The notes below the pieces were generated by a model. The model ran no database searches, had not been told where the DNA came from, and saw only the letters and a program-made list of their open reading frames with translations. From a virus (lineage: Duplodnaviria; Caudoviricetes), in IMG/VR virus record IMGVR_UViG_3300046729_000010, positions 1 to 55,527 of that record: DNA of 55,527 bases; one strand, 5' to 3'. This document shows positions 13,441 to 25,580 of the stretch, in pieces. Both the position numbers and the translations under genes were made by a program. Positions within the stretch are counted from its first letter, which is position 1, and each line of letters starts with the position of its first letter.

Positions 13441-13869
13441 ATGGCCTTCCCCGTGCCCTCCTCGAGCAGCCATCCGCACCGCCTTGTTTCCATCGACCCT
13501 GGTCTCTCGACTGGGGTCGCTGTGTTCCTGGACTTGCGGCTGGAGCGATCAATGACCACAGAGGCGCCTCATATCGCGTTGGAGCACCTCTTGATCGAGC
13601 TCGATGGGGGCGCGGTGATCGTTGCAGAGAAGGGTCCCACCAATCACCGTCGCCAAGCCGACGCGTGCGCCCCAGTAGAGGCGCTCATCACACGGCTGGC
13701 GAACCATGTCCACTGGGTAAGGCCTACCGACTGGAAGCTGCATCCGTCCGCCAACCTCGTACTCGGCGATGCGCCGGCCACGAGACACGAGCGTGACGCG
13801 ATTCAGATGGGTCGATGGTTCCTCGCCCGCAGGGGTACACCCGATGGCACCCAAGCCCGAGCTTCCTGA
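13441..13869 (+). CDS. RuvC-like Holliday junction resolvase
   Basis: LVSIDPGLSTGVA...IVAE...PTDWK...HERDA RNase H-fold motifs; start uncertain. Confidence 0.7.
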   Translation: MAFPVPSSSSHPHRLVSIDPGLSTGVAVFLDLRLERSMTTEAPHIALEHLLIELDGGAVIVAEKGPTNHRRQADACAPVEALITRLANHVHWVRPTDWKLHPSANLVLGDAPATRHERDAIQMGRWFLARRGTPDGTQARAS

Positions 13870-15103
13870 CGCACGTCCAGTGATGCATATGTCGCCCCTC
13901 GAGGCGACGAGTCGTCTGTTGGACATCTCGGTCACGGAGCGTGGTGAGTTCCGCACGTGCCGACGCAGGTGGTATCTGAGCACGATCCTGAACCTCCAGT
14001 CCAAGGGCCAAGGAGAGATCGCGCTCTCGTTCGGCACGGCCATCCACTCCGCGCTCGAGATCATCTATCGAGCCGATTTGAGCGATCCTGAGCAGCTCAG
14101 GGCCACGGTCCTGCTCGAGATGCAGGCTTGGAAGGACGTCCAGGCAGGGCTCGATCTAACGCAGTCAGAATGGGAGGAAGTACTCGACCTCGTCGAGCTG
14201 GGCGAGATCATGCTCCACAACTACTTCGCCTACGAGAATAGAGCTCCCGTCAAGCTCGGACGACCCGTTGCGGTGGAGGGCCTGATCCTGGACGAGGATC
14301 GACTCAAGCCCAGCAGACCAGACGGTTACGGACCCTACGCTGAGGTGGTCCGTCACGAGTCCGGCCGGCTCATGGTGCCCATCGTCGATCCCTACACCAA
14401 AGTTCCGATCACGAGTCTGGACGGCATTGCGTACCTGACGGGACGTATTGACGTCCTCACGGAGCGTCTGACACCCAAGCTAGGCCTGTGGGTCGTCGAT
14501 CACAAGTCGGCCGCTACCGCGCCCTCGGACAAGGGTCTGGACTGGGACGATCAAGTGACCGGCTACTGCTACATCGTGTGGCGCTGGTTGGGCATCGTCC
14601 CTCGAGGCGTCATCTTCAACTACCTGATCAAGAACGCGCCGTCAGAGCCGCGGCTGGTCAAGGGCAAGAAGAAGGGCGAAGGTCTCGTCCTCTCCACCGC
14701 GAAGGACCAACAGACCACTCCTGATCTCTACCGTGAAGCTCTCAAGGAGCACGGTCTCATGTCGGGTGGACGAATCACCTCAGAGAAGCATGCGGACTGT
14801 CTCGCAGCCCTCCTGGCCCGAGGCGACGAGCCGTTCTACCGCAGATACGAGGTCACTCGGAACATGGAGCAGCTGCTCTCGTTTGAGCGCCGACTGGTCG
14901 CGGAGCATCGTGACATGACCTTAGCTCGATTCGGACGAGAAGAAGACGAGCTTCTCTATCCCAACCCGCATCGAATGCTCTGCCCGCGCTGCTCGGTGAG
15001 CTCGATCTGCCTCGCGCTGGAAGACGGCAGCGACGTCGAAGACATCATCGACTCTCAGTACGTGACTGGACCTGACCGTAAGGCCATGAAGCTCGAACAA
15101 TAG
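13844..15103 (+). CDS. PD-(D/E)XK (RecB/Cas4-like) exonuclease
   Basis: ISVTE..FRTCRRRW..FGTAIHSALE..GRIDVL..VVDHKSA..Q..GY..CPRCSVSSIC. Confidence 0.85.
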   Translation: MAPKPELPDARPVMHMSPLEATSRLLDISVTERGEFRTCRRRWYLSTILNLQSKGQGEIALSFGTAIHSALEIIYRADLSDPEQLRATVLLEMQAWKDVQAGLDLTQSEWEEVLDLVELGEIMLHNYFAYENRAPVKLGRPVAVEGLILDEDRLKPSRPDGYGPYAEVVRHESGRLMVPIVDPYTKVPITSLDGIAYLTGRIDVLTERLTPKLGLWVVDHKSAATAPSDKGLDWDDQVTGYCYIVWRWLGIVPRGVIFNYLIKNAPSEPRLVKGKKKGEGLVLSTAKDQQTTPDLYREALKEHGLMSGGRITSEKHADCLAALLARGDEPFYRRYEVTRNMEQLLSFERRLVAEHRDMTLARFGREEDELLYPNPHRMLCPRCSVSSICLALEDGSDVEDIIDSQYVTGPDRKAMKLEQ

Positions 15104-15114
15104 GAGGCTGGGGA

Positions 15115-15426
15115 ATGAACGCGACAGAGCTTAGTGAGTGGAGCTCTCAGACGGGAGCAAACGTCACATGGGCGTCCATCGAGGGCGACCGTGTCCAAGT
15201 AACGGTGCGTAAGGGGGACATCACGGCCACGGCAGAGGGCTCGGACGCTCACGACGCAGCAGACAAGGTCATGCCGATCGTGCGCCAACTGATCCCCACA
15301 GCGCCCAGCGGTGAGGCCCAGAGCGGGGTCGAGGGCAGCGTCGTCGACGAGTCGACTCCGGAGCCACTCGATCCGCCACTCGATCCCGAGACGGATCTAC
15401 CAACAGAAGGAACCGAGTCGGCGTGA
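15115..15426 (+). CDS. hypothetical protein
   Basis: GGAGG RBS. Confidence 0.6.
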   Translation: MNATELSEWSSQTGANVTWASIEGDRVQVTVRKGDITATAEGSDAHDAADKVMPIVRQLIPTAPSGEAQSGVEGSVVDESTPEPLDPPLDPETDLPTEGTESA

Positions 15427-15614
15427 CCCCTGAGACGTTCTGGGAGAGGATCGCCGAGGCGACCGAACTTGTTGCACACAAGGGTGCGAAGCGAGTGGAC
15501 GGCCACGGGTTCAAGGTGTACACGATCCCTTCAGGCGTCACGCGTATCGACATCGAGCCAGGTCAAGCCCCAAAGGAGGCAGTTGCAAATGGCCACACAG
15601 ATGTCCGCGGTTGA
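15423..15614 (+). CDS. hypothetical protein
   Basis: GTGA overlap. Confidence 0.55.
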   Translation: MTPETFWERIAEATELVAHKGAKRVDGHGFKVYTIPSGVTRIDIEPGQAPKEAVANGHTDVRG

Positions 15615-15765
15615 GCTCACGCTCAGCCACGACACAAACAAGGAGCTCAAAGCGGGTAAACGCCGCTACTCCGACGGGGAAGGCCACACGGTCTACCTCA
15701 GTGGTCCCGAGGTCGAGCAGCTCGGCAGCGTGGACAAGATCAAGCTGACGATGGAGCCGGCGTGA
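15589..15765 (+). CDS. hypothetical protein
   Basis: AAGGAGG RBS. Confidence 0.6.
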   Translation: MATQMSAVELTLSHDTNKELKAGKRRYSDGEGHTVYLSGPEVEQLGSVDKIKLTMEPA

Positions 15766-16034
15766 TCACGCTTGGCGACAGGTGTCGCGACACGATCACT
15801 GGATTCGAGGGCACTGCCACTGCGCGTTACGAGTTCATCAACGGATGTATCCGGTACAACCTCGAGACAAGTTCGCCCAAGGAGGGCGTGCTCGAGCTCG
15901 TGTTCGACGAGCAGCGCCTCGAGGTGGTCCAGGATGCCACCGAGGAGCCAGTGGTCAAGCGTACGGGTGGGGCCAGGGATCAGCCTGCGGGGGCCAGCTC
16001 CCGAGACGCACCACCCAGGACGGGAGTGCGCTGA
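15762..16034 (+). CDS. phage hypothetical protein (SH3-like)
   Basis: ITLGDRCRDTITGFEGTATAR.EFINGC...FDEQRL, a pattern I recognise from small phage proteins. Confidence 0.7.
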   Translation: MITLGDRCRDTITGFEGTATARYEFINGCIRYNLETSSPKEGVLELVFDEQRLEVVQDATEEPVVKRTGGARDQPAGASSRDAPPRTGVR

Positions 16035-16216
16035 TGGCGGACGACGACAAGGTCATTCTGGTGACCGTAGAGCACAAGGGGATCCTGTACGAGCTCTACG
16101 TGTCACCGGTGCACCCGGACGTGTTCCAGTCCGGCGTCTTTCAAGGGGTGGGTCAGTACACCCAGGAGGCGCACGTCCGAGCAACCAGGATCGAGCCAAA
16201 GGAGGGCTCCGACTGA
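16034..16216 (+). CDS. hypothetical protein
   Basis: TGATG overlap. Confidence 0.55.
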   Translation: MADDDKVILVTVEHKGILYELYVSPVHPDVFQSGVFQGVGQYTQEAHVRATRIEPKEGSD

Positions 16217-16401
16217 TGCCTCAGTACATCATCACGCTGCTCCAGGGAGACGGCGAGCACATCGACGCAGCGGACAACGTTCAGGGCGACAACATGGACC
16301 AAGCGCTGATGGACTCCGGTCTGCTCGAGAACCACCTCGCGAACATGACTTCGGGCGACATCATGCTCATCGTCTCGACCCGACCCGAGGGAGACCTGTA
16401 G
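16216..16401 (+). CDS. hypothetical protein
   Basis: TGATG overlap, GGAGG RBS. Confidence 0.55.
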   Translation: MPQYIITLLQGDGEHIDAADNVQGDNMDQALMDSGLLENHLANMTSGDIMLIVSTRPEGDL

Positions 16402-17208
16402 GTGTCTCTCCTGATCGGGAAGCCGGCGGACACTCGGTTCGCCAAGGTGCTCATGTTCTCACCGGCTGGCCACGGAAAGACTCACTTCCTGGGCACCGCT
16501 GAGGAGGACGAGCGCACATCACCAATGCTCCTGCTCGACTTCGAGGGCGGGGAGGAAACGCTCACGGGGCTGGACATCGACGTGGCGCGCATCAGGTCCT
16601 GGGACGACTACTCCGAGGCGTACGAGATCCTCTCAGACCCCGATACGAAGTACAAGTCGTGCGGGGTGGACTCCATCTCGGAGACTCACATCTGGGCCCT
16701 TCTGTCTCGGCTCGACGAACAGGGCGCTCGCAGAAAAGACCCCGACCTCATCGAGATCGGTGACTACGGAGTGGCCGGCACGCAGCTGCGCCGGCTCCTG
16801 CGCGAGTTCAGAGACCTTCCGATGCACGTGTTCTACACCGCTGCCTCCAAAGAGGTGGACGAGCGCGGCGTCGGTCGAGTCAAAGTGCCAGCCATGTCTG
16901 GCCAGATGGCCGAAGAGGTCGTCCACCTCATGTCGATCGTCGGCTACCTCGCGCTGGCTCCGAGCGAGGAGACGGGTGAGATGGAGCGCCTCATGCTGCT
17001 CCAGAACTATCCCGGGTTCAGGACGAAGGTCAGAGCTCCGTGGCGAGCAATCGCTCCGGACGAGATCGTCCAGCCCACGATCACGAAGCTCCTGGACGCC
17101 CTCAACTTCCAGGTGCCCAGCACCAACGGCAAGGTCGATGCCGCGCCGGCCAAGGCTGTGACCAGACGACGCACAACCACCAGCAGCGTCAAGGAGAAAA
17201 CGGAATGA
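16402..17208 (+). CDS. AAA_24/Sak4-like ATPase (recombinase)
   Basis: SPAGHGKT Walker A; LLLDFEGG; GVDSISE; lies between exonuclease and SSB. Confidence 0.85.
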   Translation: MSLLIGKPADTRFAKVLMFSPAGHGKTHFLGTAEEDERTSPMLLLDFEGGEETLTGLDIDVARIRSWDDYSEAYEILSDPDTKYKSCGVDSISETHIWALLSRLDEQGARRKDPDLIEIGDYGVAGTQLRRLLREFRDLPMHVFYTAASKEVDERGVGRVKVPAMSGQMAEEVVHLMSIVGYLALAPSEETGEMERLMLLQNYPGFRTKVRAPWRAIAPDEIVQPTITKLLDALNFQVPSTNGKVDAAPAKAVTRRRTTTSSVKEKTE

Positions 17209-17627
17209 ACAAGGCTCCAAGAAAGACCTGGAACATCCAGGTCACGGAGGACGACATCCAGTGGGCTCAGCGCAACAACTCGTCCAAGTGCGTCGTCGCA
17301 AAAGCGATCGCAAGGACGCTGCCTGAATGCTCCTACATCGGAGTGGACATCCAAACGGTCAGGTTCTCACTTGGCCTATGGCGCTACGAGTACCTGACGC
17401 CGCCCAGCATCCAGGACTACATCGTCTCGTTCGATGCTGGTGACGTGATCAAGCCGTTCAAGTTCCGGCTGCAGCGGCCCAAGATCCGCGAGCGCCAGGT
17501 GCTCAGCGATTCGATCGAGCCACCCAAGAAGAGGGACAACCGCAGGGTCAATCGAGGAGCACGACGCTCACGAGCGGGCAGGGCCTACGGACGTCGCACC
17601 CTACGTGAGAACCAAAAGGAGAGCTGA
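17205..17627 (+). CDS. hypothetical protein
   Basis: AAGGAG RBS, ATGA overlap. Confidence 0.65.
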   Translation: MNKAPRKTWNIQVTEDDIQWAQRNNSSKCVVAKAIARTLPECSYIGVDIQTVRFSLGLWRYEYLTPPSIQDYIVSFDAGDVIKPFKFRLQRPKIRERQVLSDSIEPPKKRDNRRVNRGARRSRAGRAYGRRTLRENQKES

Positions 17628-17630
17628 CAC

Positions 17631-18137
17631 ATGGCAGGCGTTCGCATCAACTTCGCAGAGGTCGAGTCGAGCTTCGCACCGATGCCCGAGGGCACGTACG
17701 ACGTGATCGTCGAGCTCGTTGAGGTCCGCGAGTCGAAGTCCAGCGACAACGATTACCTGAACTGGGAGTTCACGGTTCAGGACGACGAGTTCCAGGGGCG
17801 CAAGCTCTGGATGATCACGAGCCTCAGCGCCAAGGCGCTGTGGAAGCTCAAGGACACGTTCCTCGCCCTCGAGGTGATCGAGGAGGACGACGAGGTCGAG
17901 GTCGAGTGGGAGGACGACGTGGACATCACGCCCGGCGAGGGTCCGCGTGTCACGTTCCCCGAGCTCGACGGACTCGCCTGCAAGGTCGAGGTTCGCAACG
18001 AAGTGTACGAGGGGCGTGAGCGCAACAAGGTACAGGACGTCCTCGGCGCTGGCGGAGCTCCCGCGAAGGCCACCAAGTCCAGCGGCCGGCCGTCCAAGTC
18101 GGCCAACGGCGCCGGTCGGACACGCAAGCTGCGCTGA
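17631..18137 (+). CDS. DUF669-family ssDNA-binding protein
   Basis: FAPMPEGTYDV..VEVRESKS..YLNWEF..GRKLW..LWKLK..YEGRERNKV. Confidence 0.8.
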   Translation: MAGVRINFAEVESSFAPMPEGTYDVIVELVEVRESKSSDNDYLNWEFTVQDDEFQGRKLWMITSLSAKALWKLKDTFLALEVIEEDDEVEVEWEDDVDITPGEGPRVTFPELDGLACKVEVRNEVYEGRERNKVQDVLGAGGAPAKATKSSGRPSKSANGAGRTRKLR

Positions 18138-18140
18138 GCC

Positions 18141-18527
18141 ATGAGAGCGACGGTCTGTAAGATCATCGACTTCCCGGCGGCTCACTCCAACCAACACCAC
18201 AGCGGGCACTGCTCCAGAGTTCACGGTCACACGTGGACCCTGGAGCTTCACTGCAGGGGTCCGCTGGTGCAAGATCCGAGATCAGAAGCGTACGGAATGG
18301 TCGTGGACTTTGCCACGATCAAGCGTGCCTACCAGGAGTACGTGGAGCCGCGCGTCGAGCACCAAAACCTGAACGAGACCCTGAACCTTCCGGAGTACAC
18401 GACGGAGCACGTCGCTATGTGGATCTGGCAGCAGCTCCATCCTGTCCTCCCGCAGCTGTACAAGGTGCGGCTGTGGGAGGGCAAGAGTTCGTTTGCTGAA
18501 GTGTGCAACGGGGACCAGATCGCATGA
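18141..18527 (+). CDS. queD: 6-carboxy-5,6,7,8-tetrahydropterin synthase
   Basis: FPAAH...CSRVHGHTW...GMVVDF...HQNLNE..TTEHVA..VRLWE; CxxxHGH motif intact. Confidence 0.9.
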   Translation: MRATVCKIIDFPAAHSNQHHSGHCSRVHGHTWTLELHCRGPLVQDPRSEAYGMVVDFATIKRAYQEYVEPRVEHQNLNETLNLPEYTTEHVAMWIWQQLHPVLPQLYKVRLWEGKSSFAEVCNGDQIA

Positions 18528-19096
18528 GCACCTCCGGGTCTGGACTCGACGGATGGTGGCTCTGCGAAGGCCCAGAGCACAGTCGTCATCCCTGCTTCGA
18601 GTCCAAGCTGGGTGAGCCCTGTGGACGATGCGGAAGCTCGTCCCCATCACCTATCCGAATCACAAAGAAGGATCCGATCGAAGCGGACAGCGGACGTGTT
18701 CAAGAGCTCCTCGCGAAGGGACCGATCCAGGTGTCACCCAACCCGAACGTGGGCTCGGTGGGCAAACCGCCGGCTCACTACCGCGGAGCAGGAGGGATGC
18801 AACCGTTCGATGTGATCGACGCGTTCGATCTCTCCTTCTACGAAGGCTCCGCGGTGAAGTACATCCTGCGATGGCGACGCAAGGGAGGCGTTGAGGACCT
18901 GCACAAGGCCCGACACTTCCTGGAGGAAGTCATCCTCCGAGCCGAGGCAGAAGAGCGGTTGGACCGAGAGGCTGAAGAAGCGACCACCTACCGCTGCGCA
19001 TACTGTCACGAGCCCCTGGGCGAGGCCGTCTTCGTCGTGGTCGGAGGCGGCGAGGTACATGAGAGCTGCGCCGTCACAATGATGCAGACGACCTGA
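18524..19096 (+). CDS. DUF3310-domain protein with flanking Cys motifs
   Basis: PAHY...FYEGSAVKYILRWRRKGGVEDLHKARHFL. Confidence 0.8.
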   Translation: MSTSGSGLDGWWLCEGPEHSRHPCFESKLGEPCGRCGSSSPSPIRITKKDPIEADSGRVQELLAKGPIQVSPNPNVGSVGKPPAHYRGAGGMQPFDVIDAFDLSFYEGSAVKYILRWRRKGGVEDLHKARHFLEEVILRAEAEERLDREAEEATTYRCAYCHEPLGEAVFVVVGGGEVHESCAVTMMQTT

Positions 19097-19112
19097 GGGA
19101 GGAACTTACTAG

Positions 19113-19436
19113 ATGGACTTGGACACGTACCAGGAGCGAGCCTGGAGGACTGCTGTCTACCCCCACGCGGGGGAGGGGCAGTGGACCGGACTCGCGTACG
19201 CGGGACTCGGAGCCACGGGCGAAGCAGGGGAGATCGCCAACAAGATCAGGAAGATGGCACGTGACGACTTGGGCGAGCTGACCGCTGCCCGTCGCGACGC
19301 GATCATGTCAGACGTGGGAGGGACGTTGTGGTACCTCGCAGCTGTAGCGCAAGAGCTCGGCACCACGCTCTCTGTTATCGCCGAACGGAACATCGGCGAA
19401 CTCTCCAGTCGCGCTGAGCGCGGAGGCGAGCAATGA
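19113..19436 (+). CDS. MazG-like nucleotide pyrophosphohydrolase
   Basis: YQERAWRTAVY...GEAGEIANKIRK...LWYLA...NI. Confidence 0.8.
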   Translation: MDLDTYQERAWRTAVYPHAGEGQWTGLAYAGLGATGEAGEIANKIRKMARDDLGELTAARRDAIMSDVGGTLWYLAAVAQELGTTLSVIAERNIGELSSRAERGGEQ

Positions 19437-19537
19437 CCATCGTCATCGATGTGATCGCTGCGGTCATTGGGGCGGTAGGCATCGTCCTGATGGGCGTTGC
19501 TGTCTACCGTGTCTACAAATGGGAAAGACCCAAGTGA
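19433..19537 (+). CDS. 34-aa membrane peptide
   Basis: MTIVIDVIAAVIGAVGIVLMGVAVYRVYKWERPK; overlaps both neighbours. Confidence 0.5.
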   Translation: MTIVIDVIAAVIGAVGIVLMGVAVYRVYKWERPK

Positions 19538-20328
19538 GCGCGATCAGACCAAAGATTCCGTCCTGGCCAGTGATCGAGATGTTCGGCCCCACCGTTCAGG
19601 GCGAAGGTGTGGACCAGGGCGTCGCATGTCACTTCGTTCGATTCGGAGGCTGTGACTACAGGTGTGACTGGTGCGACACTCCCTACGCAGTCTTGCCGAA
19701 TCAGGTGCGCGCCAACTCGACCAAGATGTCCACGGCTGACATCCTGTTGGACCTGGACAGTCGACCCCACGTGCCCTGGGTCGTGCTGTCTGGAGGGAAT
19801 CCGGCGCTGCATGATCTCACCCACCTCGTCCAAACCCTTCACGATCACGACTACCTCGTCGCGGTCGAGACTCAAGGATCGAGGTGGCGCGAGTGGATGA
19901 AGGGCGTGGACAGACTCTGCGTGAGCCCGAAGCCTCCATCGTCCAACGAGCCGAAGTCGAAGATGTCGCAGCTGGCCAGGTTCCTGCAAGAGGGAATGGC
20001 AGCTCGAGAAAGTGGCATGCGACCGTACGAGTGGTTGTTCCTCAAGGTCGTCTGCTTTACCCCGTCAGACCTGGACTACGCAGTCAACATCCGGAAGCAG
20101 CTTTCGGACGCAATGATGTTTCTGTCGGCCGGCAACGATGCTGGAGCAACGGTGGCCTACCCCGGCCGAGAGGACCTGCGGTCGTTGGCGGGCATTCGCA
20201 TGGGCCTGTTGGACCAGGCTCGCTGGCTGACAGAAGAAGTGCTCAAGCGTCCGGAGCTTTGCGCTCAAGACGTCTACATCCAAGCTCAATTCCATACGCT
20301 CCTGTGGGGCAACGGAAGGGGATTCTGA
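19534..20328 (+). CDS. queE: 7-carboxy-7-deazaguanine synthase (radical SAM)
   Basis: EMFGPTVQGEG...FVRFGGCDYRCDWCDT...LSGGNP...VETQGS...VSPKPPSS...QFHTLLWGN; GTG 19534 or ATG 19519. Confidence 0.93.
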   Translation: MSAIRPKIPSWPVIEMFGPTVQGEGVDQGVACHFVRFGGCDYRCDWCDTPYAVLPNQVRANSTKMSTADILLDLDSRPHVPWVVLSGGNPALHDLTHLVQTLHDHDYLVAVETQGSRWREWMKGVDRLCVSPKPPSSNEPKSKMSQLARFLQEGMAARESGMRPYEWLFLKVVCFTPSDLDYAVNIRKQLSDAMMFLSAGNDAGATVAYPGREDLRSLAGIRMGLLDQARWLTEEVLKRPELCAQDVYIQAQFHTLLWGNGRGF

Positions 20329-20970
20329 ATGGCGATCCAGCCCAAGCCTATCGAGCCTGAAGCAGACCTCTGGCCGCAGAGCCGGATCACCCATCACAAG
20401 CGCTTCGTGACTGCGGTTCACAACCAGCTGCGGATCATCGAGGAGTGCGGCCGCGGAGAGGACGTCCGCGCCGGCCTGAAGGAAACTCCACAGCGAGTGG
20501 CCAAGATGTGGCTTGATGAGCTCACATCTGGCTACGCGATCGACGTCGAGAGCCTGTTCAAGGTCTTCGACGACCACGGTGACTACAACGGGATGGTCGT
20601 CCTCAAGGACGTGCCCGTGATGAGCCAGTGCGAACACCACCTCGTACCGTTCGTGGGTTACGCGCACGTGGCCTACTTCCCCGGCGAGCATGTCCTGGGC
20701 CTGTCCAAGATCCCGCGGGTCATCGACGCGTACGCTCGCCGGCTCCAGATCCAGGAGCGCCTCACACAACAGATCCACGACGCGCTCGACAAGTACCTCA
20801 AGCCACGTGGCGTGATCGTCGTCATCGAAGCAGAGCATCTCTGCATGACGCTCCGAGGCGTCCAGCGTCCGGGTACGAAGACCATGACCAGCGCCGTCTC
20901 GGGCATCTTCCGCGACCCCGACGAGTACGCCCGAGCCGAGTTCTTCCAGCTGCTGGCGCGGAGGACCTGA
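20329..20970 (+). CDS. folE: GTP cyclohydrolase I
   Basis: ETPQRVAK...[11 protein letters not shown]...GLSKIPR...[10 protein letters not shown]...[11 protein letters not shown]. Confidence 0.95.
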
Positions 20971-21324
20971 ATGAGTATCACGACCTACATCGAGGTCAAG
21001 TTTCAGTGGCCCGGGGTTCACTCGTGGCCGGGGGCGTCCGGCACACACGAGTACCTCAAGTGCCCGCACCGTCACCTGTTCAAGGGGGTGGCTCGGATCG
21101 AAGTGCTCCATGACGATCGCGAGCTCGAGTTCCTCGAAGTGCTCGACTACATCCTGGAAGGACAGAAAGACGGACAGCTCGCGTTGCACGGCTCCGCGTC
21201 GTGTGAACAAATCGCCTCGGCTATCCTCGATCGTCTTCTGAGTCGCTATGGCGATGCACGAATCATGATCGTCAGCGTGCTCGAGGACGGAGAGAACGGG
21301 GCTCTGGTCCAGTGGATGCCGTAA
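20971..21324 (+). CDS. dpdL: QueD-paralog T-fold protein, putative CDG decarboxylase (DpdL-like)
   Basis: LKCPHRHLF (LxxxHRHxF) in place of CxxxHGH; SCE; VLEDGENGA; located in the folE/queE cluster. Confidence 0.7.
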   Translation: MSITTYIEVKFQWPGVHSWPGASGTHEYLKCPHRHLFKGVARIEVLHDDRELEFLEVLDYILEGQKDGQLALHGSASCEQIASAILDRLLSRYGDARIMIVSVLEDGENGALVQWMP

Positions 21325-21341
21325 CACCTCGCATCGTTCCA

Positions 21342-21578
21342 ATGCCCGACCTCAAGGGCGCCATGCCAGTCTGGAGGTTCTACTACAAGAACTGGCGCGG
21401 AGAAAACCACGTCTACAAGGTTCAAGTCCAAAGCGTTCGATACGGTGAGGTCGGATACCCCGCGCCGAAAAAGGACTGGCTTCTGGACGCCACGGTGGTC
21501 GATCGCGACAGCAAGTACCGACCCGGTGAACGCACGTTCGTACTGAACAACATCAGGCACGTTGAGGTGGTCTCCTGA
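21342..21578 (+). CDS. stand-alone WYL-like domain protein
   Basis: FYYKNWRGE...WLLDA...ERTFVLNNI; start uncertain (21312/21342/21363). Confidence 0.6.
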   Translation: MPDLKGAMPVWRFYYKNWRGENHVYKVQVQSVRYGEVGYPAPKKDWLLDATVVDRDSKYRPGERTFVLNNIRHVEVVS

Positions 21579-22519
21579 TGCATGCTGCCCTGATCTGTCC
21601 GGTGCCGGACCTGAAGAAGTACGTTGATCGCGGAGCCACGCACCATCTGCTACTGGCTCATCTGTTCGACATTCCCGGCTACATCGAGTTCTACCGGGAA
21701 CGTGTCGAGCTCTACGACGACTACGTGATAGTGGACAACGGAGCGAAGGAGAACGGGCGAGGTCTCGGGCTCAAGAAGGTGCTCGAGCTCGGCCACCTCG
21801 TCCGTGCCAAGGAAGTCGTTGTTGCGGACGTGCGCTACGAGTGCGATGCCACCATCGAGTCCGCTCAGAAGGAGCTCGCTTGGCTCGCCTCCAAAGAAGG
21901 ACAGCAGCACTACACCTGGGTCGGCCAGCCTCGACTGATGGTCGTACCGCAGGGAGAGACGCCCGAGCGTTGGTTCGAGTGCTTGCTCGAGCTCACGCGA
22001 CTAGTCGCTGAGGCGCTGCAGTGGACGCCGCACCCACAGCCCGTGATCGGCGTCGCGTATCACTACGACCACCTGTTCGAAGCAGGCTTGAATGGCCTTC
22101 TGGATCTTCCGGTGGTACAGCGCTACGACGTCCACCTGCTCGGGTGGCCCAGGGCGCTCAGGCCCCTCCTGGACGCGTCAAAGCGCTACAGGAACCTGCG
22201 ATCGGTAGACTCGAGCCGGCCGTTCGTCTACGCCAAGGGCGGACTCGGGAACACCAGGGGCTATCCCGGATTCGAAGCTAACCCCTACCCCTCCCGCGAT
22301 GAACAGTTCTTCACCGAGTCGATATCACCTTCGCTCGACAACTTCGTTCGAGCTAACGTTGCCCATTTCCGTCGCTATGCCGGCGACGTCGCTGGCCAAA
22401 GTCGATGCATTGAGTGCGGGTCCACCCGACTCAACATTCGCAACTACTCGATGATGTGGCACGACGGGGATCTCTACTGCGAGAACGGGCACTACGTGAG
22501 AGGATACGACGCGGGATGA
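21578..22519 (+). CDS. dpdA: divergent TGT-fold DNA guanine transglycosylase (DpdA-like, possibly DpdA3)
   Basis: VIVDNGAKE, VVADV, MVVPQG, HLLG, SVDSS occur in the order of TGT/DpdA motifs; next to queE/folE. Confidence 0.7.
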   Translation: MHAALICPVPDLKKYVDRGATHHLLLAHLFDIPGYIEFYRERVELYDDYVIVDNGAKENGRGLGLKKVLELGHLVRAKEVVVADVRYECDATIESAQKELAWLASKEGQQHYTWVGQPRLMVVPQGETPERWFECLLELTRLVAEALQWTPHPQPVIGVAYHYDHLFEAGLNGLLDLPVVQRYDVHLLGWPRALRPLLDASKRYRNLRSVDSSRPFVYAKGGLGNTRGYPGFEANPYPSRDEQFFTESISPSLDNFVRANVAHFRRYAGDVAGQSRCIECGSTRLNIRNYSMMWHDGDLYCENGHYVRGYDAG

Positions 22520-22592
22520 AACCTCACCTGCAGTACGCAAGCTACGTTGCAAGGATGAAACCTCACCTGCAGTACGCAAGCTACGTTGCAAG
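22514..22592 (+). repeat. perfect 39-bp tandem duplication
   Basis: GGATGAAACCTCACCTGCAGTACGCAAGCTACGTTGCAA twice; duplicates MKPHLQYASYVAR. Confidence 0.95.
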
Positions 22593-23004
22593 ACACAAGT
22601 GGTTCGTGTTCTTGGCCGGCCTGAAGACAGGTGCACCGCTGTGGAGACTCGTCATCCACGACTGGTCCAAGCTCACGCCCGCGGAGTGGGGTCCCTACGT
22701 GCGGACGTTCTACGACAAGAGCCGGAAGCGCCCAGGTGAGTTCGACGCGGCCTGGCTCCACCATCAGCACCGCAACCCGCACCACTGGCAGCACTGGGTT
22801 CTGCGCGAGGACGACGGTGACACAAAGGCGATCCGAATGCCCGACGTCCTGGTGAGAGAGATGGTTGCGGACTGGATGGGCGCCGGACGAGCCATCACCG
22901 GCAAGTGGGACCTCGATGAGTGGTTCGGGGCCAACCGACACAAGATGGTTCTGCATCAGGACACGGAAGAACTCGTCTTTGAACTGGTGCTGGATTACGC
23001 GTGA
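22516..23004 (+). CDS. DUF5662-like HD-type protein
   Basis: RHKWFV...HDWSK...HHQHRNPHHWQHW...EMVADWMGAGRA; alternative start 22555. Confidence 0.75.
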   Translation: MKPHLQYASYVARMKPHLQYASYVARHKWFVFLAGLKTGAPLWRLVIHDWSKLTPAEWGPYVRTFYDKSRKRPGEFDAAWLHHQHRNPHHWQHWVLREDDGDTKAIRMPDVLVREMVADWMGAGRAITGKWDLDEWFGANRHKMVLHQDTEELVFELVLDYA

Positions 23005-25580
23005 CCGACTCCTGCCACTCACAGTGCCGCTCCGGCTGCCCTTGTCCTGGCCCGGAGGTCGTCAGCCGGCACGACAACGCTGAAGTCGCGATCGTTCTCG
23101 ACTGGCCAAGTGAGCAGGAGTCAAAGGCGGACGAGTGGCTGGTGGGCAAACGCGGAGGCGCGTCAGAGCTCCTTCGCACGCTCCTGCTCCACTACGAGAG
23201 CGATCTCGAGAAGCTGTACATCTGTTCCGCGGTCAACTGCAGACCCAATCCCAAGAAGAAGGCGATGCAGAAGAAGGCGATGACCGCGTGTCGCGAGAGG
23301 CTCGTCAACGAGTTGCGCGAAGCCGGCGTCAAGAAAGTGCTGTGCGTTGGCCCTCTCGGGTACGGCGCGCTGACGACATCCAAGGCCCTGCCGGCCATCA
23401 CGAAGGTTCGGGGCCGATGGAAGAAGGCGTTCGGGATGGACGTGATAGCCACGCTCCCTCCCGGGTTCGCGATCGGTGAGCCAGAGTACTTCCGTGACCT
23501 GGCCTACGACGTGCACAAGTTCTTCACGACCGATGGACTGCAGCCAACACCCAACGTTGACCTCTGGGTCCCCGAGACCCTGGAGGAAGTGGACGAGGCG
23601 TTCGAGTTCCTCTACGCCGGACACTCGTTCGTTGCGATGGACCTTGAGACGACTGGCTTCTCACCGATCAGCGAAGTCCCGCTCGCTGTGGGACTCGGAG
23701 TGCTCGAGGGTCCAACGGACGCGACGGTGGTGGCCTTGAGTGAGACGATGCTCGAGTCCAAGAAGGTCTGGCGTCGGATCGAGAAGCTACTCAACGGTCC
23801 GATCGAGACGGTCTTCCACAACGCCAAGTTCGACCTTCAACACCTCAAGCAGCAACTGCTGGAGCACGGTCTCAAGTACGAGCCTCAGGCAATCCACGAC
23901 ACGATGATGCTCAACTACGCGCTCGACGAGCGACCGATGGGCAAGTACAAGTGTCATGGCCTGGAGGCCATCGCTCGCATCCGGTACGACGCACCCGACT
24001 ATGGTATCAAGATGGGCGAGTTCCTCAAGGAGTGGGAGACCGCCACGTCGGAGCATCGCGAAGAGATGCGACTCAAGATGCACACATACATGGCGTTGGA
24101 TGTCTACTACACGGCTCGGCTCTTCCCCGATCTCTACAACGAGTGCCTGGACGAAGACGAGGACCTGCTCGAGCTCTACGACCGTCTGTTCATCCCAGGT
24201 GTCCTGGCTCTGGCCAACGTCGAGCACCACGGCATCCTCCTGGACCGACCGATGTACGAGAAGTCGCGACAAGAGCTCGGTCTCAAGGCCGATGTCATCC
24301 TCAAGCGCATCAGGCAAGCCACGGACAATCCCGAGTTCAACCCCGGCTCGCCGGTCCAGGTGAAGAAGTTCGTCTACGACGAGCTTGGCTTGACCATCGA
24401 CGCAGGCCTGGCCGCAGCCGTGGCCCAGATCACGGACGTCTCGAGCCGCAAGGAGGGCATCAGATCCAGAGGTACGTACACGGACCCAAGCCGCCTCAAG
24501 GTCTCGGCCACAGCGGCTCCGGTGTTGAAGATGATCGCCCGAGGCCATCCGGAGCACCGACAGCTGCTGGACGACATCTGCGAGTGGCGCAATCTCTCAA
24601 AGAACGCGGGCACCTACATCAACGGGTTGCTGCAGCGCTGCGACGTCGACGGACGAGTCCGGGCCACGCTGAACATCCACGGCACCGCTTCTGGCCGGCT
24701 CAGCTCCACGAACCCGAACCTACAGAACCTCCCTCCGGCGAGCCACACGGGCATCGCGGTCAGGTCCGGCTTCCTGGCCCCGCCCGGCTACTCCTTCCTA
24801 GACTGCGACTACAAGCAGCTGGAAGTCCGCATGGCCGGAGAGATGTCTCACGATCCGGCGATGAAGGAGTTGTTCGAGTCCGGTGGTGACCCCCACGCTG
24901 AGACGTCGAAGATCATCTACGGACGATCTGACGTGTCTCACTACGAGCGGATGCTCGGCAAGATCCTGACGTTCGGACTCCTGTACGGCCGCTCACCCAA
25001 CTCCATCGCGACCGGACCCGAAGCTGAGGACATCGTCGCTCGAGGAGGCAAGCGTTGGGGTCCACGCGACGTCCACGAGTTCTTCGACAACCTGCTCAGC
25101 AACTGGGCGGTGTACGCAAAGTGGAGGCAGGGCTGTCGCGAGGCTCCGTACAAGGACGGAGAGATCAAGTTCAGCATCGGACGCAAGAGACGTTTCCACT
25201 TTGTGCCCAAGCACGACGGCGGACACATGGGCCGGCAGGGCATCAACACACCGTGCCAGGGCACCGCGTCCGACTTCTGCCTCTACGCTCTCATCAAGCT
25301 TGACGAAGTGCTCAGGCCCTACCGAGCCCAGGTGGTGGCCACCGTCCACGACTCGTTGCTCGTCGAATGCCACGACGACGATCTCGAGGCTGTGGTGCCA
25401 ATCGTCATCGAGGTCATGGAACGCGACACGCTGTGGAAGACTTACATTCCGCTCAAGGTCGATCTCAAGATCACGAAGCGGTGGGGGCAGGACGACGACG
25501 AGCAGTATGCAGGCACCTCGTCCGCGGACGACAGCCTCGAGCTACTCGAAGCGTCTCTGCGCGAGCACGCCGATGACTAA
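23001..25580 (+). CDS. family A DNA polymerase with N-terminal UDG-like domain and 3'-5' exonuclease
   Basis: Exo DLETTG, FHNAKFD, YMALDV; Pol TASGRLSS..PNLQN, DYKQLEVR, R..GKILTFGLLYG, NTPCQG, TVHDS; N-terminal NCRP..C..ITKVRG. Confidence 0.93.
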   Translation: MTDSCHSQCRSGCPCPGPEVVSRHDNAEVAIVLDWPSEQESKADEWLVGKRGGASELLRTLLLHYESDLEKLYICSAVNCRPNPKKKAMQKKAMTACRERLVNELREAGVKKVLCVGPLGYGALTTSKALPAITKVRGRWKKAFGMDVIATLPPGFAIGEPEYFRDLAYDVHKFFTTDGLQPTPNVDLWVPETLEEVDEAFEFLYAGHSFVAMDLETTGFSPISEVPLAVGLGVLEGPTDATVVALSETMLESKKVWRRIEKLLNGPIETVFHNAKFDLQHLKQQLLEHGLKYEPQAIHDTMMLNYALDERPMGKYKCHGLEAIARIRYDAPDYGIKMGEFLKEWETATSEHREEMRLKMHTYMALDVYYTARLFPDLYNECLDEDEDLLELYDRLFIPGVLALANVEHHGILLDRPMYEKSRQELGLKADVILKRIRQATDNPEFNPGSPVQVKKFVYDELGLTIDAGLAAAVAQITDVSSRKEGIRSRGTYTDPSRLKVSATAAPVLKMIARGHPEHRQLLDDICEWRNLSKNAGTYINGLLQRCDVDGRVRATLNIHGTASGRLSSTNPNLQNLPPASHTGIAVRSGFLAPPGYSFLDCDYKQLEVRMAGEMSHDPAMKELFESGGDPHAETSKIIYGRSDVSHYERMLGKILTFGLLYGRSPNSIATGPEAEDIVARGGKRWGPRDVHEFFDNLLSNWAVYAKWRQGCREAPYKDGEIKFSIGRKRRFHFVPKHDGGHMGRQGINTPCQGTASDFCLYALIKLDEVLRPYRAQVVATVHDSLLVECHDDDLEAVVPIVIEVMERDTLWKTYIPLKVDLKITKRWGQDDDEQYAGTSSADDSLELLEASLREHADD

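Follow-up and report, generated by a model that had tools for sequence, protein, structure and literature searches.

The genome of an uncultured tailed phage (Duplodnaviria; Caudoviricetes), deposited as IMG/VR virus record IMGVR_UViG_3300046729_000010, carries inside its replication gene block what is probably a 7-deazaguanine DNA-modification module of the DpdL/DpdA3 type. We think it likely that 7-carboxy-7-deazaguanine (CDG) is produced through FolE, QueD and QueE, that it is decarboxylated by DpdL, and that a DpdA3-type transglycosylase inserts the resulting 7-deazaguanine at a high fraction of the guanines (G) of the phage DNA. The stretch analysed (hereafter the window) is the whole record, a linear sequence of 55,527 bases that CheckV estimates to be 94% complete.

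The gene set is one that has already been published, and the phage is a further example of the phiST-type system, whose product is 2'-deoxy-7-deazaguanosine (dDG). The marine Cellulophaga phage phiST possesses FolE, QueD, QueE, DpdL and DpdA3 but no QueC, and every guanine of its DNA is replaced by 7-deazaguanine: 302,000 dDG per 10^6 nucleotides were measured, while deoxyguanosine was undetectable and the amount of dCDG, a CDG derivative, was 0 (Cui, Hutinet et al., Nucleic Acids Res 2023, PMC10516641). Complete replacement of G is linked there to DpdA3, in phiST, CP220 and immuto_2-6A. Table DS1 of the same paper lists 27 genomes with DpdL, all 27 of them without QueC, among which 21 possess DpdA3, 2 DpdA1 and 4 DpdA2. 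A reading made from the sequence alone, before the present analysis, had set the configuration apart from QueC-containing clusters in actinophages; beside these 27 published QueC-less genomes, 21 of them with DpdA3, it is not unusual (PMC10516641). In a search of full-text literature, phage DpdL and DpdA3 were found only in this publication.

Genes for CDG synthesis and absence of preQ0 enzymes

The five genes noted in the sequence-only reading are all present on the + strand, at the following positions:

18141..18527, + strand: queD, 6-carboxytetrahydropterin synthase (PF01242 E 1.3e-28, 99.8 bits against a cut-off of 22.4; CxxxHGH motif)
19519..20328, + strand: queE, 7-carboxy-7-deazaguanine synthase, radical SAM (TIGR03365 E 8.3e-60; phrog_2076 E 3.6e-36; CDYRCDWC by eye)
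20329..20970, + strand: folE, GTP cyclohydrolase I (PF01227 E 2.2e-64; TIGR00063 205.4 bits against a cut-off of 181.6)
20971..21324, + strand: predicted DpdL homologue, 117 amino acids (aa), a QueD paralogue and proposed CDG decarboxylase (homology, motif, T-fold model)
21578..22519, + strand: predicted DpdA3-type DNA guanine transglycosylase, 313 aa (barrel like that of tRNA-guanine transglycosylase (TGT) in residues 1-271, C-terminal CxxC...CxxxH tail)

FolE, QueD and QueE together convert GTP to CDG, and the assignment of all three was confirmed by Pfam and NCBIfam profiles. FolE exceeds the NCBIfam cut-offs; QueE, at 202.3 bits, lies marginally under the curated cut-off of TIGR03365 (206.1), and QueD passes the Pfam cut-off while scoring below that of TIGR03367 (75.3 bits against 89.25). 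The cluster is tightly packed, the ATG of the 117-aa open reading frame (ORF) following immediately on the folE stop codon and the stop codon of a small ORF overlapping the ATG of the 313-aa ORF.

Absence was assessed by six-frame searches of the whole record (~94% complete) with hidden Markov models (HMMs). Neither QueC (PF06508) nor GATase_7 (PF13537), the Gat part of Gat-QueC, gave a match, and the sole match to QueF (PF14489) was a cross-hit of 18.4 bits inside FolE, below the cut-off. The QueC search was positive in 14 of 14 reference genomes that served as control. The earlier observation that QueC, QueF and Gat-QueC are missing is thus upheld for the whole record. With the profile of the PTPS family (PF01242), the queD gene alone was matched.

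A DpdL homologue between folE and dpdA3

The 117-aa protein has no match in Pfam or NCBIfam, and its identification comes from comparison with phage proteins. Searched against phages with tblastn, it matches 29 records, each covering at least 80% of the query. These include published DpdL proteins of ACP17 (42.2% identity, 1e-17), RHph_I1_18 (37.4%), the phiST group (31.4%, 4e-5) and PA5oct (30.4%), and further BCSR5, BUDD and Ahp1; all of these are DpdL phages in table DS1 (PMC10516641). The genes matched in phiST and ACP17 are the very genes named DpdL in that paper, and with a profile built from the 117-aa family this gene was recovered from all five published DpdL phages that served as control (E 1e-20 to 5e-32). 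The homology runs from end to end. It includes the LxxxHRHxF motif, which in place of the CxxxHGH of QueD defines DpdL (PMC10516641): LKCPHRHLF here aligns with LGSPHRHLF in ACP17, LAHPHRHLF in RHph_I1_18 and LSLNHRHLF in phiST. The leucine stands at the position of the catalytic cysteine of QueD, where the phage's own QueD reads CSRVHGH, and the blocks HDDRE..EF, SCE and EDGENGA are likewise common to the 117-aa protein and the DpdL alignment.

An AlphaFold (AF2) model from an 8-sequence alignment has a T-fold (pLDDT 89.2), which Foldseek matches best to E. coli QueD (4ntk, E 5.9e-5, TM score 0.69) and the P. horikoshii PTPS (2dj6, TM score 0.74). The gene context, with FolE, QueD, QueE and a DpdA present and QueC absent, has the same pattern as in the 27 genomes of table DS1. 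Judged by homology, profile control, motif and model, the second T-fold protein of the sequence-only reading is a DpdL homologue, as that reading had proposed. DpdL itself was put forward as a CDG decarboxylase from context and motif, the activity being demonstrated there for none of its members (PMC10516641).

A DpdA3-type transglycosylase with a Cys/His tail

DpdA3 is a distant TGT homologue that is detected only by HHpred (PMC10516641). The 313-aa protein conforms to this: it has no Pfam match, and PF01702 finds nothing in six frames of the record. Its family comprises 1,019 representatives at E <=1e-3 among 1.84 billion. A model from a 32-sequence alignment (pLDDT 90.0, pTM 0.85) forms a TGT-like (beta/alpha)8 barrel over residues 1-271, in agreement with the TGT fold assigned to 21578..22519 beforehand. 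Among the matches listed by Foldseek for the PDB, 50 of 50 are tRNA-guanine or archaeosine transglycosylases (E about 1e-7), and alignment to the Zymomonas mobilis TGT with VIA-align gives Z 15.5 and a root-mean-square deviation of 3.6 A over 229 aligned residues. Since PDB sequence profile searches with the family alignments of DpdL and DpdA3 gave chance hits (E 0.09-0.27 across both searches), the fold links of the two proteins are drawn from predicted structures alone.

Within the DpdA proteins, the earlier assignment to DpdA3 by eye is borne out in a comparison that covered DpdA1-3. By tblastn against phages, only DpdA3 proteins of the phiST group are matched (23.6% identity to phiST), and hhalign gives a probability of 99.3% to phiST DpdA3 over 249 columns against 0.35% to the DpdA1 of 9g. 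The family HMM recognises named DpdA3 proteins (phiST 91.0 bits, BSP7 80.3, RHph_I1_18 48.2, Ahp1 46.6) well above members of the other subfamilies (DpdA2 of nt-1 9.9 and of ACP17 5.2, DpdA1 of 9g -1.9). By these measures the 313-aa protein is of DpdA3 type: it resembles named DpdA3 more than it does DpdA1 or DpdA2.

Three aspartates, D53, D84 and D211, are invariant across the 32 family members and across QueC-linked and DpdL-linked relatives; judged by TGT motifs, they may be the equivalents of the catalytic Asp residues of TGT. The last ~45 residues form a Cys/His tail (CxxC...CxxxH, by eye) that is modelled with low confidence. In the family alignment this tail is confined to the closest relatives, i.e. 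this phage and the proteins P0002-P0005 and P0007; P0041 is probably tailed too, judged only from its full-length match to the 313-aa protein. A tail of this kind on DpdA3 appears to be a new point.

Apparent exchange of QueC and DpdL among relatives

In IMG/VR no relative of the 313-aa protein above 40% identity was found. We compared 79 IMG/VR loci with a DpdA3 relative at 25-40% identity, derived from the best 80 of 157 confirmed stretches. Their usual gene order is Cas4-like, AAA_24, DUF669, queD, queE, folE, queC, (DUF3310), dpdA3, polA, and 74 of the 79 have a PolA homologue, mostly downstream of DpdA3. The slot between folE and dpdA3 is occupied by dpdL in the present phage and in two related loci (L063 and L077), and by queC elsewhere. 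Whole-record searches found QueC in 61 of the 79 related records (43/50 and 18/29), including 8 of the 9 that are at least 90% complete. The DpdL profile matched two records (0/50 and 2/29), those behind L063 and L077; neither has QueC, and the only complete record that lacks it is one of these two. The remaining 16, mostly short fragments, have neither gene. QueC and DpdL thus occur together in none of the 79 related records, nor in any of the 27 published DpdL genomes (PMC10516641), which argues that DpdL functionally replaces QueC. The exchange of the two genes in one slot among close relatives is a new point, and the equivalence of the slot is shown here.

The closest relatives, L015 and L003, are of the QueC type. 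Identities to their proteins are 64% for AAA_24, 55-61% for SNF2, 46-54% for PolA and 57-61% for FolE, and 34-40% for DpdA3. In a quick maximum-likelihood tree (LG+G4, 100 rows, excluding PA5oct and 16 duplicates) the DpdA3 of this phage falls in a clade of 25 metagenome proteins (SH-aLRT 98) nested among QueC-linked proteins. This clade is apart from L063 and from a group formed by L077, RHph_I1_18 and Ahp1; phiST lies nearby on a long and unsure branch, and because phiST and BSP7 are both on long branches the deep placements are unsure. Such a pattern agrees with QueC and DpdL having replaced one another repeatedly in DpdA3 phages, whatever the direction and number of the events. A scan of metagenome contigs confirmed no relative of the 25-member clade, and a scan of genome contigs gave one weak partial match, in a metagenome-assembled genome. 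Three DpdL-like proteins and three clade members share the longest-contig values 1711, 8321 and 3160, which is the sole and indirect sign that DpdL may occur in the clade.

No residue change in DpdA3 is common to the DpdL-linked lineages. Among the 41 columns that are at least 75% conserved in QueC-linked DpdA3, none differs in three or more of the four DpdL-linked lineages, and positions 83 and 161 differ only in the clade of this phage and one other lineage. QueC-linked and DpdL-linked proteins do not differ in the conserved core residues D53, N54, D84, H186, G189, D211 and N260.

Taken jointly, these data allow a wider reading that we put forward tentatively and hold to be more doubtful than not. 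In one syntenic lineage QueC and DpdL would be interchangeable cassettes in a single slot upstream of a DpdA3 whose core residues stay constant, so that DpdA3 would either be blind to the 7-substituent or insert a common precursor. The clade of this phage would then represent an independent switch from QueC to DpdL, accompanied by the gain of a zinc-ribbon-like tail, and have led to a fully dDG-substituted genome in a high-GC, possibly actinobacterial, phage group.

Proposed pathway and alternative explanations

In the pathway that we consider probable, FolE, QueD and QueE, enzymes identified by sequence, would turn GTP into CDG. DpdL would strip the carboxyl group from CDG to give 7-deazaguanine, and the DpdA3-type transglycosylase would, as its fold and family suggest, swap guanine in the phage DNA for this base. 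We infer both new enzymatic steps as well as the product and its level. dDG is our best prediction for the product, based on phiST, the one measured precedent with the same gene set; as measured in that phage, it may replace a large share of the G, perhaps even the whole. DNA modified in this way would be protected against restriction enzymes with G-containing sites.

Several observations weigh against this pathway. For the present phage it is a prediction from sequence and models. Measurements of dDG are confined to phiST and two near-identical phages; when dpdL and dpdA of phiST and of ACP17 were co-expressed in E. coli no dDG was detected, and attempts with DpdA3 in E. coli failed (PMC10516641). 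The DpdA3 studied here is just 23.6% identical to that of phiST and sits in the tree among QueC-associated relatives, not with the DpdA3 of phiST, RHph and Ahp1; one named DpdA3, that of PA5oct, goes unrecognised by the family HMM (0.5 bits). Base specificity is unreadable from sequence, since the DpdL-linked DpdA3 lineages have no residue change in common. Finally, the record is ~94% complete, and a host QueC is possible.

These points leave room for other products and routes. The DNA could carry dCDG or another CDG derivative if DpdL were no decarboxylase, or if DpdA3 inserted CDG and any tailoring took place on the DNA. The chemistry of DpdL is predicted only and its heterologous expression yielded no dDG; moreover, PMC10516641 itself weighs the insertion of CDG by DpdA3 as a common precursor, with which the identical core residues of QueC-linked and DpdL-linked DpdA3, and the lack of a column separating at least three of the four DpdL lineages, would agree. 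We nevertheless consider a CDG-type product unlikely, as phiST with the same gene set has 0 dCDG against 302,000 dDG per 10^6 nucleotides, and the published structural model of DpdL favours the free base as substrate (PMC10516641).

Base exchange might also precede replication, with MazG hydrolysing dGTP, DpdA3 swapping the base on the nucleotide and the polymerase incorporating the modified dNTP, a route that would explain complete replacement. A MazG-like gene lies within the cluster here and in phiST, a PolA homologue occurs in 74 of the 79 related loci, mostly just downstream of DpdA3, and complete replacement is reached by DpdA3 phages (PMC10516641). The route is weakened by the scarcity of the MazG-like family (phrog_229) among relatives, where no more than 11 of 79 records have it, the two with DpdL not among them, and by the failure to find a nucleotide kinase in the 55,527-base record with Pfam and PHROGs; the PHROG label 'nucleotide kinase' on the DUF3310 protein of the cluster arises from a match that covers only the DUF3310 part of fused profiles. 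TGT-fold enzymes, furthermore, work on polynucleotides. PMC10516641 argues for post-replicative insertion, and we hold a pre-replicative route to be very improbable. Still slimmer, in our judgement, is the chance that phage-made CDG is handed to a host QueC, so that the DNA ends with dPreQ0 or dADG and DpdL has another role. QueC is common in bacteria (the control search being positive in 14 of 14 reference genomes), and the nearest relatives by neighbouring genes use it, but QueC and DpdL are never found together in the 79 related records or the 27 published DpdL genomes (PMC10516641), and dpdL sits in the very slot of queC. The pathway through DpdL to dDG thus remains the reading that we prefer.

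Comparison with known systems

The closest parallel is phiST. It likewise combines these five enzymes with a MazG-like gene in the cluster and lacks QueC; its DpdL bears L/HRHxF, and its DpdA3 aligns over the full length. In both phages the cluster is located just upstream of the replicative polymerase, the parallel order being queD-queE-folE-mazG-dpdL-x-dpdA3-x-polymerase. Identity between the two is low (DpdL 31%, DpdA3 23.6%), and the polymerase is annotated as Pol III alpha in phiST, while it is of family A with an N-terminal UDG-like domain here. An AAA_18 ATPase gene separates dpdL from dpdA3 in phiST, where the present phage has a small WYL-like ORF; the latter phage further differs by the extra Cys/His tail (~45 residues) on DpdA3 and a genome of about 62% GC.

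The QueC-type locus L003 shares with this phage the succession of Cas4-like nuclease, AAA_24, DUF669, queD, queE, folE, [slot], dpdA3, polA and SNF2 helicase, and L015 has the same order from AAA_24 onward, its Cas4 end being cut off. While neighbouring proteins are 46-64% identical to those here, DpdA3 is less so, at only 34-40%; the slot holds QueC in these loci, and DpdL plus the small ORF in this phage, whose MazG, DUF3310 and DUF5662 genes are not found at the corresponding positions. In Bacillus phage BSP7, with a QueC-containing DpdA3 module, dpdA3 likewise adjoins the gene for DNA polymerase I on its upstream side.

Phages with DpdL and DpdA2 (Acidovorax phage ACP17, Xanthomonas phage BUDD and Burkholderia phage BCSR5) also are without QueC, and the DpdL of ACP17 is the closest among cultured phages. 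Their transglycosylase, however, is DpdA2, barely recognised by the family HMM of the present DpdA3 (5.2 bits for ACP17), and in ACP17 a glycosyltransferase-like gene adjoins dpdL, of which there is none in this phage. The ACP17 gene between DpdA2 and DpdL (L002:4963-5991) matches Glycos_transf_1 (E 2.5e-4) and GT4-conflict (E 1.4e-3), both weakly. Compared with bacterial TGT (Zymomonas mobilis), the 313-aa protein has the same barrel fold but no sequence-level match (PF01702, PDB profile search); the aligned TGT chains exceed it by ~100 residues, and its gene context is DNA replication, not tRNA modification.

Accessory genes and neighbouring features

The complete order of the cluster, all on the + strand, is queD, DUF3310, MazG-like, queE, folE, dpdL, small ORF, dpdA3, DUF5662, polA. 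The features in addition to the five enzymes are:

18503..19096, + strand: DUF3310-domain protein, accessory (PF11753 E 1.1e-9, residues 89-141)
19113..19436, + strand: MazG-like nucleotide pyrophosphohydrolase, accessory (phrog_229 E 2.1e-26; Pfam MazG only E 0.097)
21342..21578, + strand: small ORF of 78 aa (ATG at 21342), similar to WYL-domain proteins in model features only
22514..22592, no strand: perfect 39-bp tandem duplication (TRF: period 39, 2.0 copies, 100% matches)
22516..23004, + strand: DUF5662 protein, between dpdA3 and polA (PF18907 E 4.5e-39; start read by eye)
23001..25580, + strand: family A DNA polymerase with 3'-5' exonuclease and N-terminal UDG-like domain (PF00476 E 3.6e-66, PF01612 E 5.4e-15, PF03167 E 8.4e-6)

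DUF3310 lies directly upstream of DpdA3 in 14 of the 79 related loci, and in Rhizobium phage RHph_I1_18 the named DpdA3 carries it as a C-terminal fusion (L082:7080-8348; residues 353-411, 24.2 bits). MazG was considered as a fixed member of the module and rejected on its occurrence in related records (11/79). The small ORF between dpdL and dpdA3 has no Pfam match, and a word search with it (as an 88-aa ORF) returned only itself; its Protein Atlas feature score of 0.92 and predicted-structure TM scores of 0.72-0.75 are to WYL clusters, i.e. stand-alone phage WYL-domain proteins. The 39-bp tandem duplication extends across the stop codon of dpdA3 and the beginning of the gene for DUF5662, and gives two in-frame copies of MKPHLQYASYVAR and therefore two possible start sites for DUF5662. 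Searches with phmmer found the DUF5662 protein in 0 of the 79 related loci. The UDG-like domain of PolA (PF03167, E 8.4e-6) comprises residues 26-154 and is probably lineage-wide, as the PolA of the closest relatives aligns over nearly its full length.

Phage type and possible host

Pfam and PHROGs identify a tailed phage, with portal, major capsid, large terminase, tail sheath, baseplate J and tape measure proteins, and a replication block with primase-helicase, Cas4-like PD-(D/E)XK nuclease, AAA_24 ATPase, DUF669 protein, family A polymerase and SNF2 helicase. A block of Cas4-like nuclease, AAA_24 (Sak4-like) and DUF669 (13769-18137 in the window) beside deazaguanine genes and polymerase is also found in the annotation of Enterobacteria phage 9g, which, with this similar replication block, uses DpdA1 and Gat-QueC. 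GC content along the record is 58-65%, about 62% for the genome. No tRNA genes were found in the record, and a megablast search of the cluster region against 50,697 phage records gave no match at the DNA level.

The sequence-only reading had drawn its comparison with actinophages, a status that is not shown for this phage: its portal and PolA reach only 26-30% identity to their best matches among cultured phages. Arthrobacter phages rank first for the portal (<=30% identity), and Brevundimonas, Lysinibacillus, Gordonia and Clostridium phages are at the top for PolA (<=27%). An actinobacterial host is a guess from these matches and at best weakly indicated. Among the 27 DpdL genomes of table DS1 there is no named actinobacterial phage, many being uncultured with the host unstated (PMC10516641).

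Implications

The published picture of DpdL/DpdA3 systems is unchanged by this phage, which adds to it a compact minimal example, with five enzymes and no sugar-tailoring genes, from a high-GC phage. DNA that is fully substituted with 7-deazaguanine resists many restriction enzymes, and is thus relevant both to the conflict between phage and host and to DNA technology. Together with its QueC-bearing relatives, the phage forms a natural matched pair, the comparison of which could show what sets the base choice of DpdA3, and also whether DpdL truly is a CDG decarboxylase.

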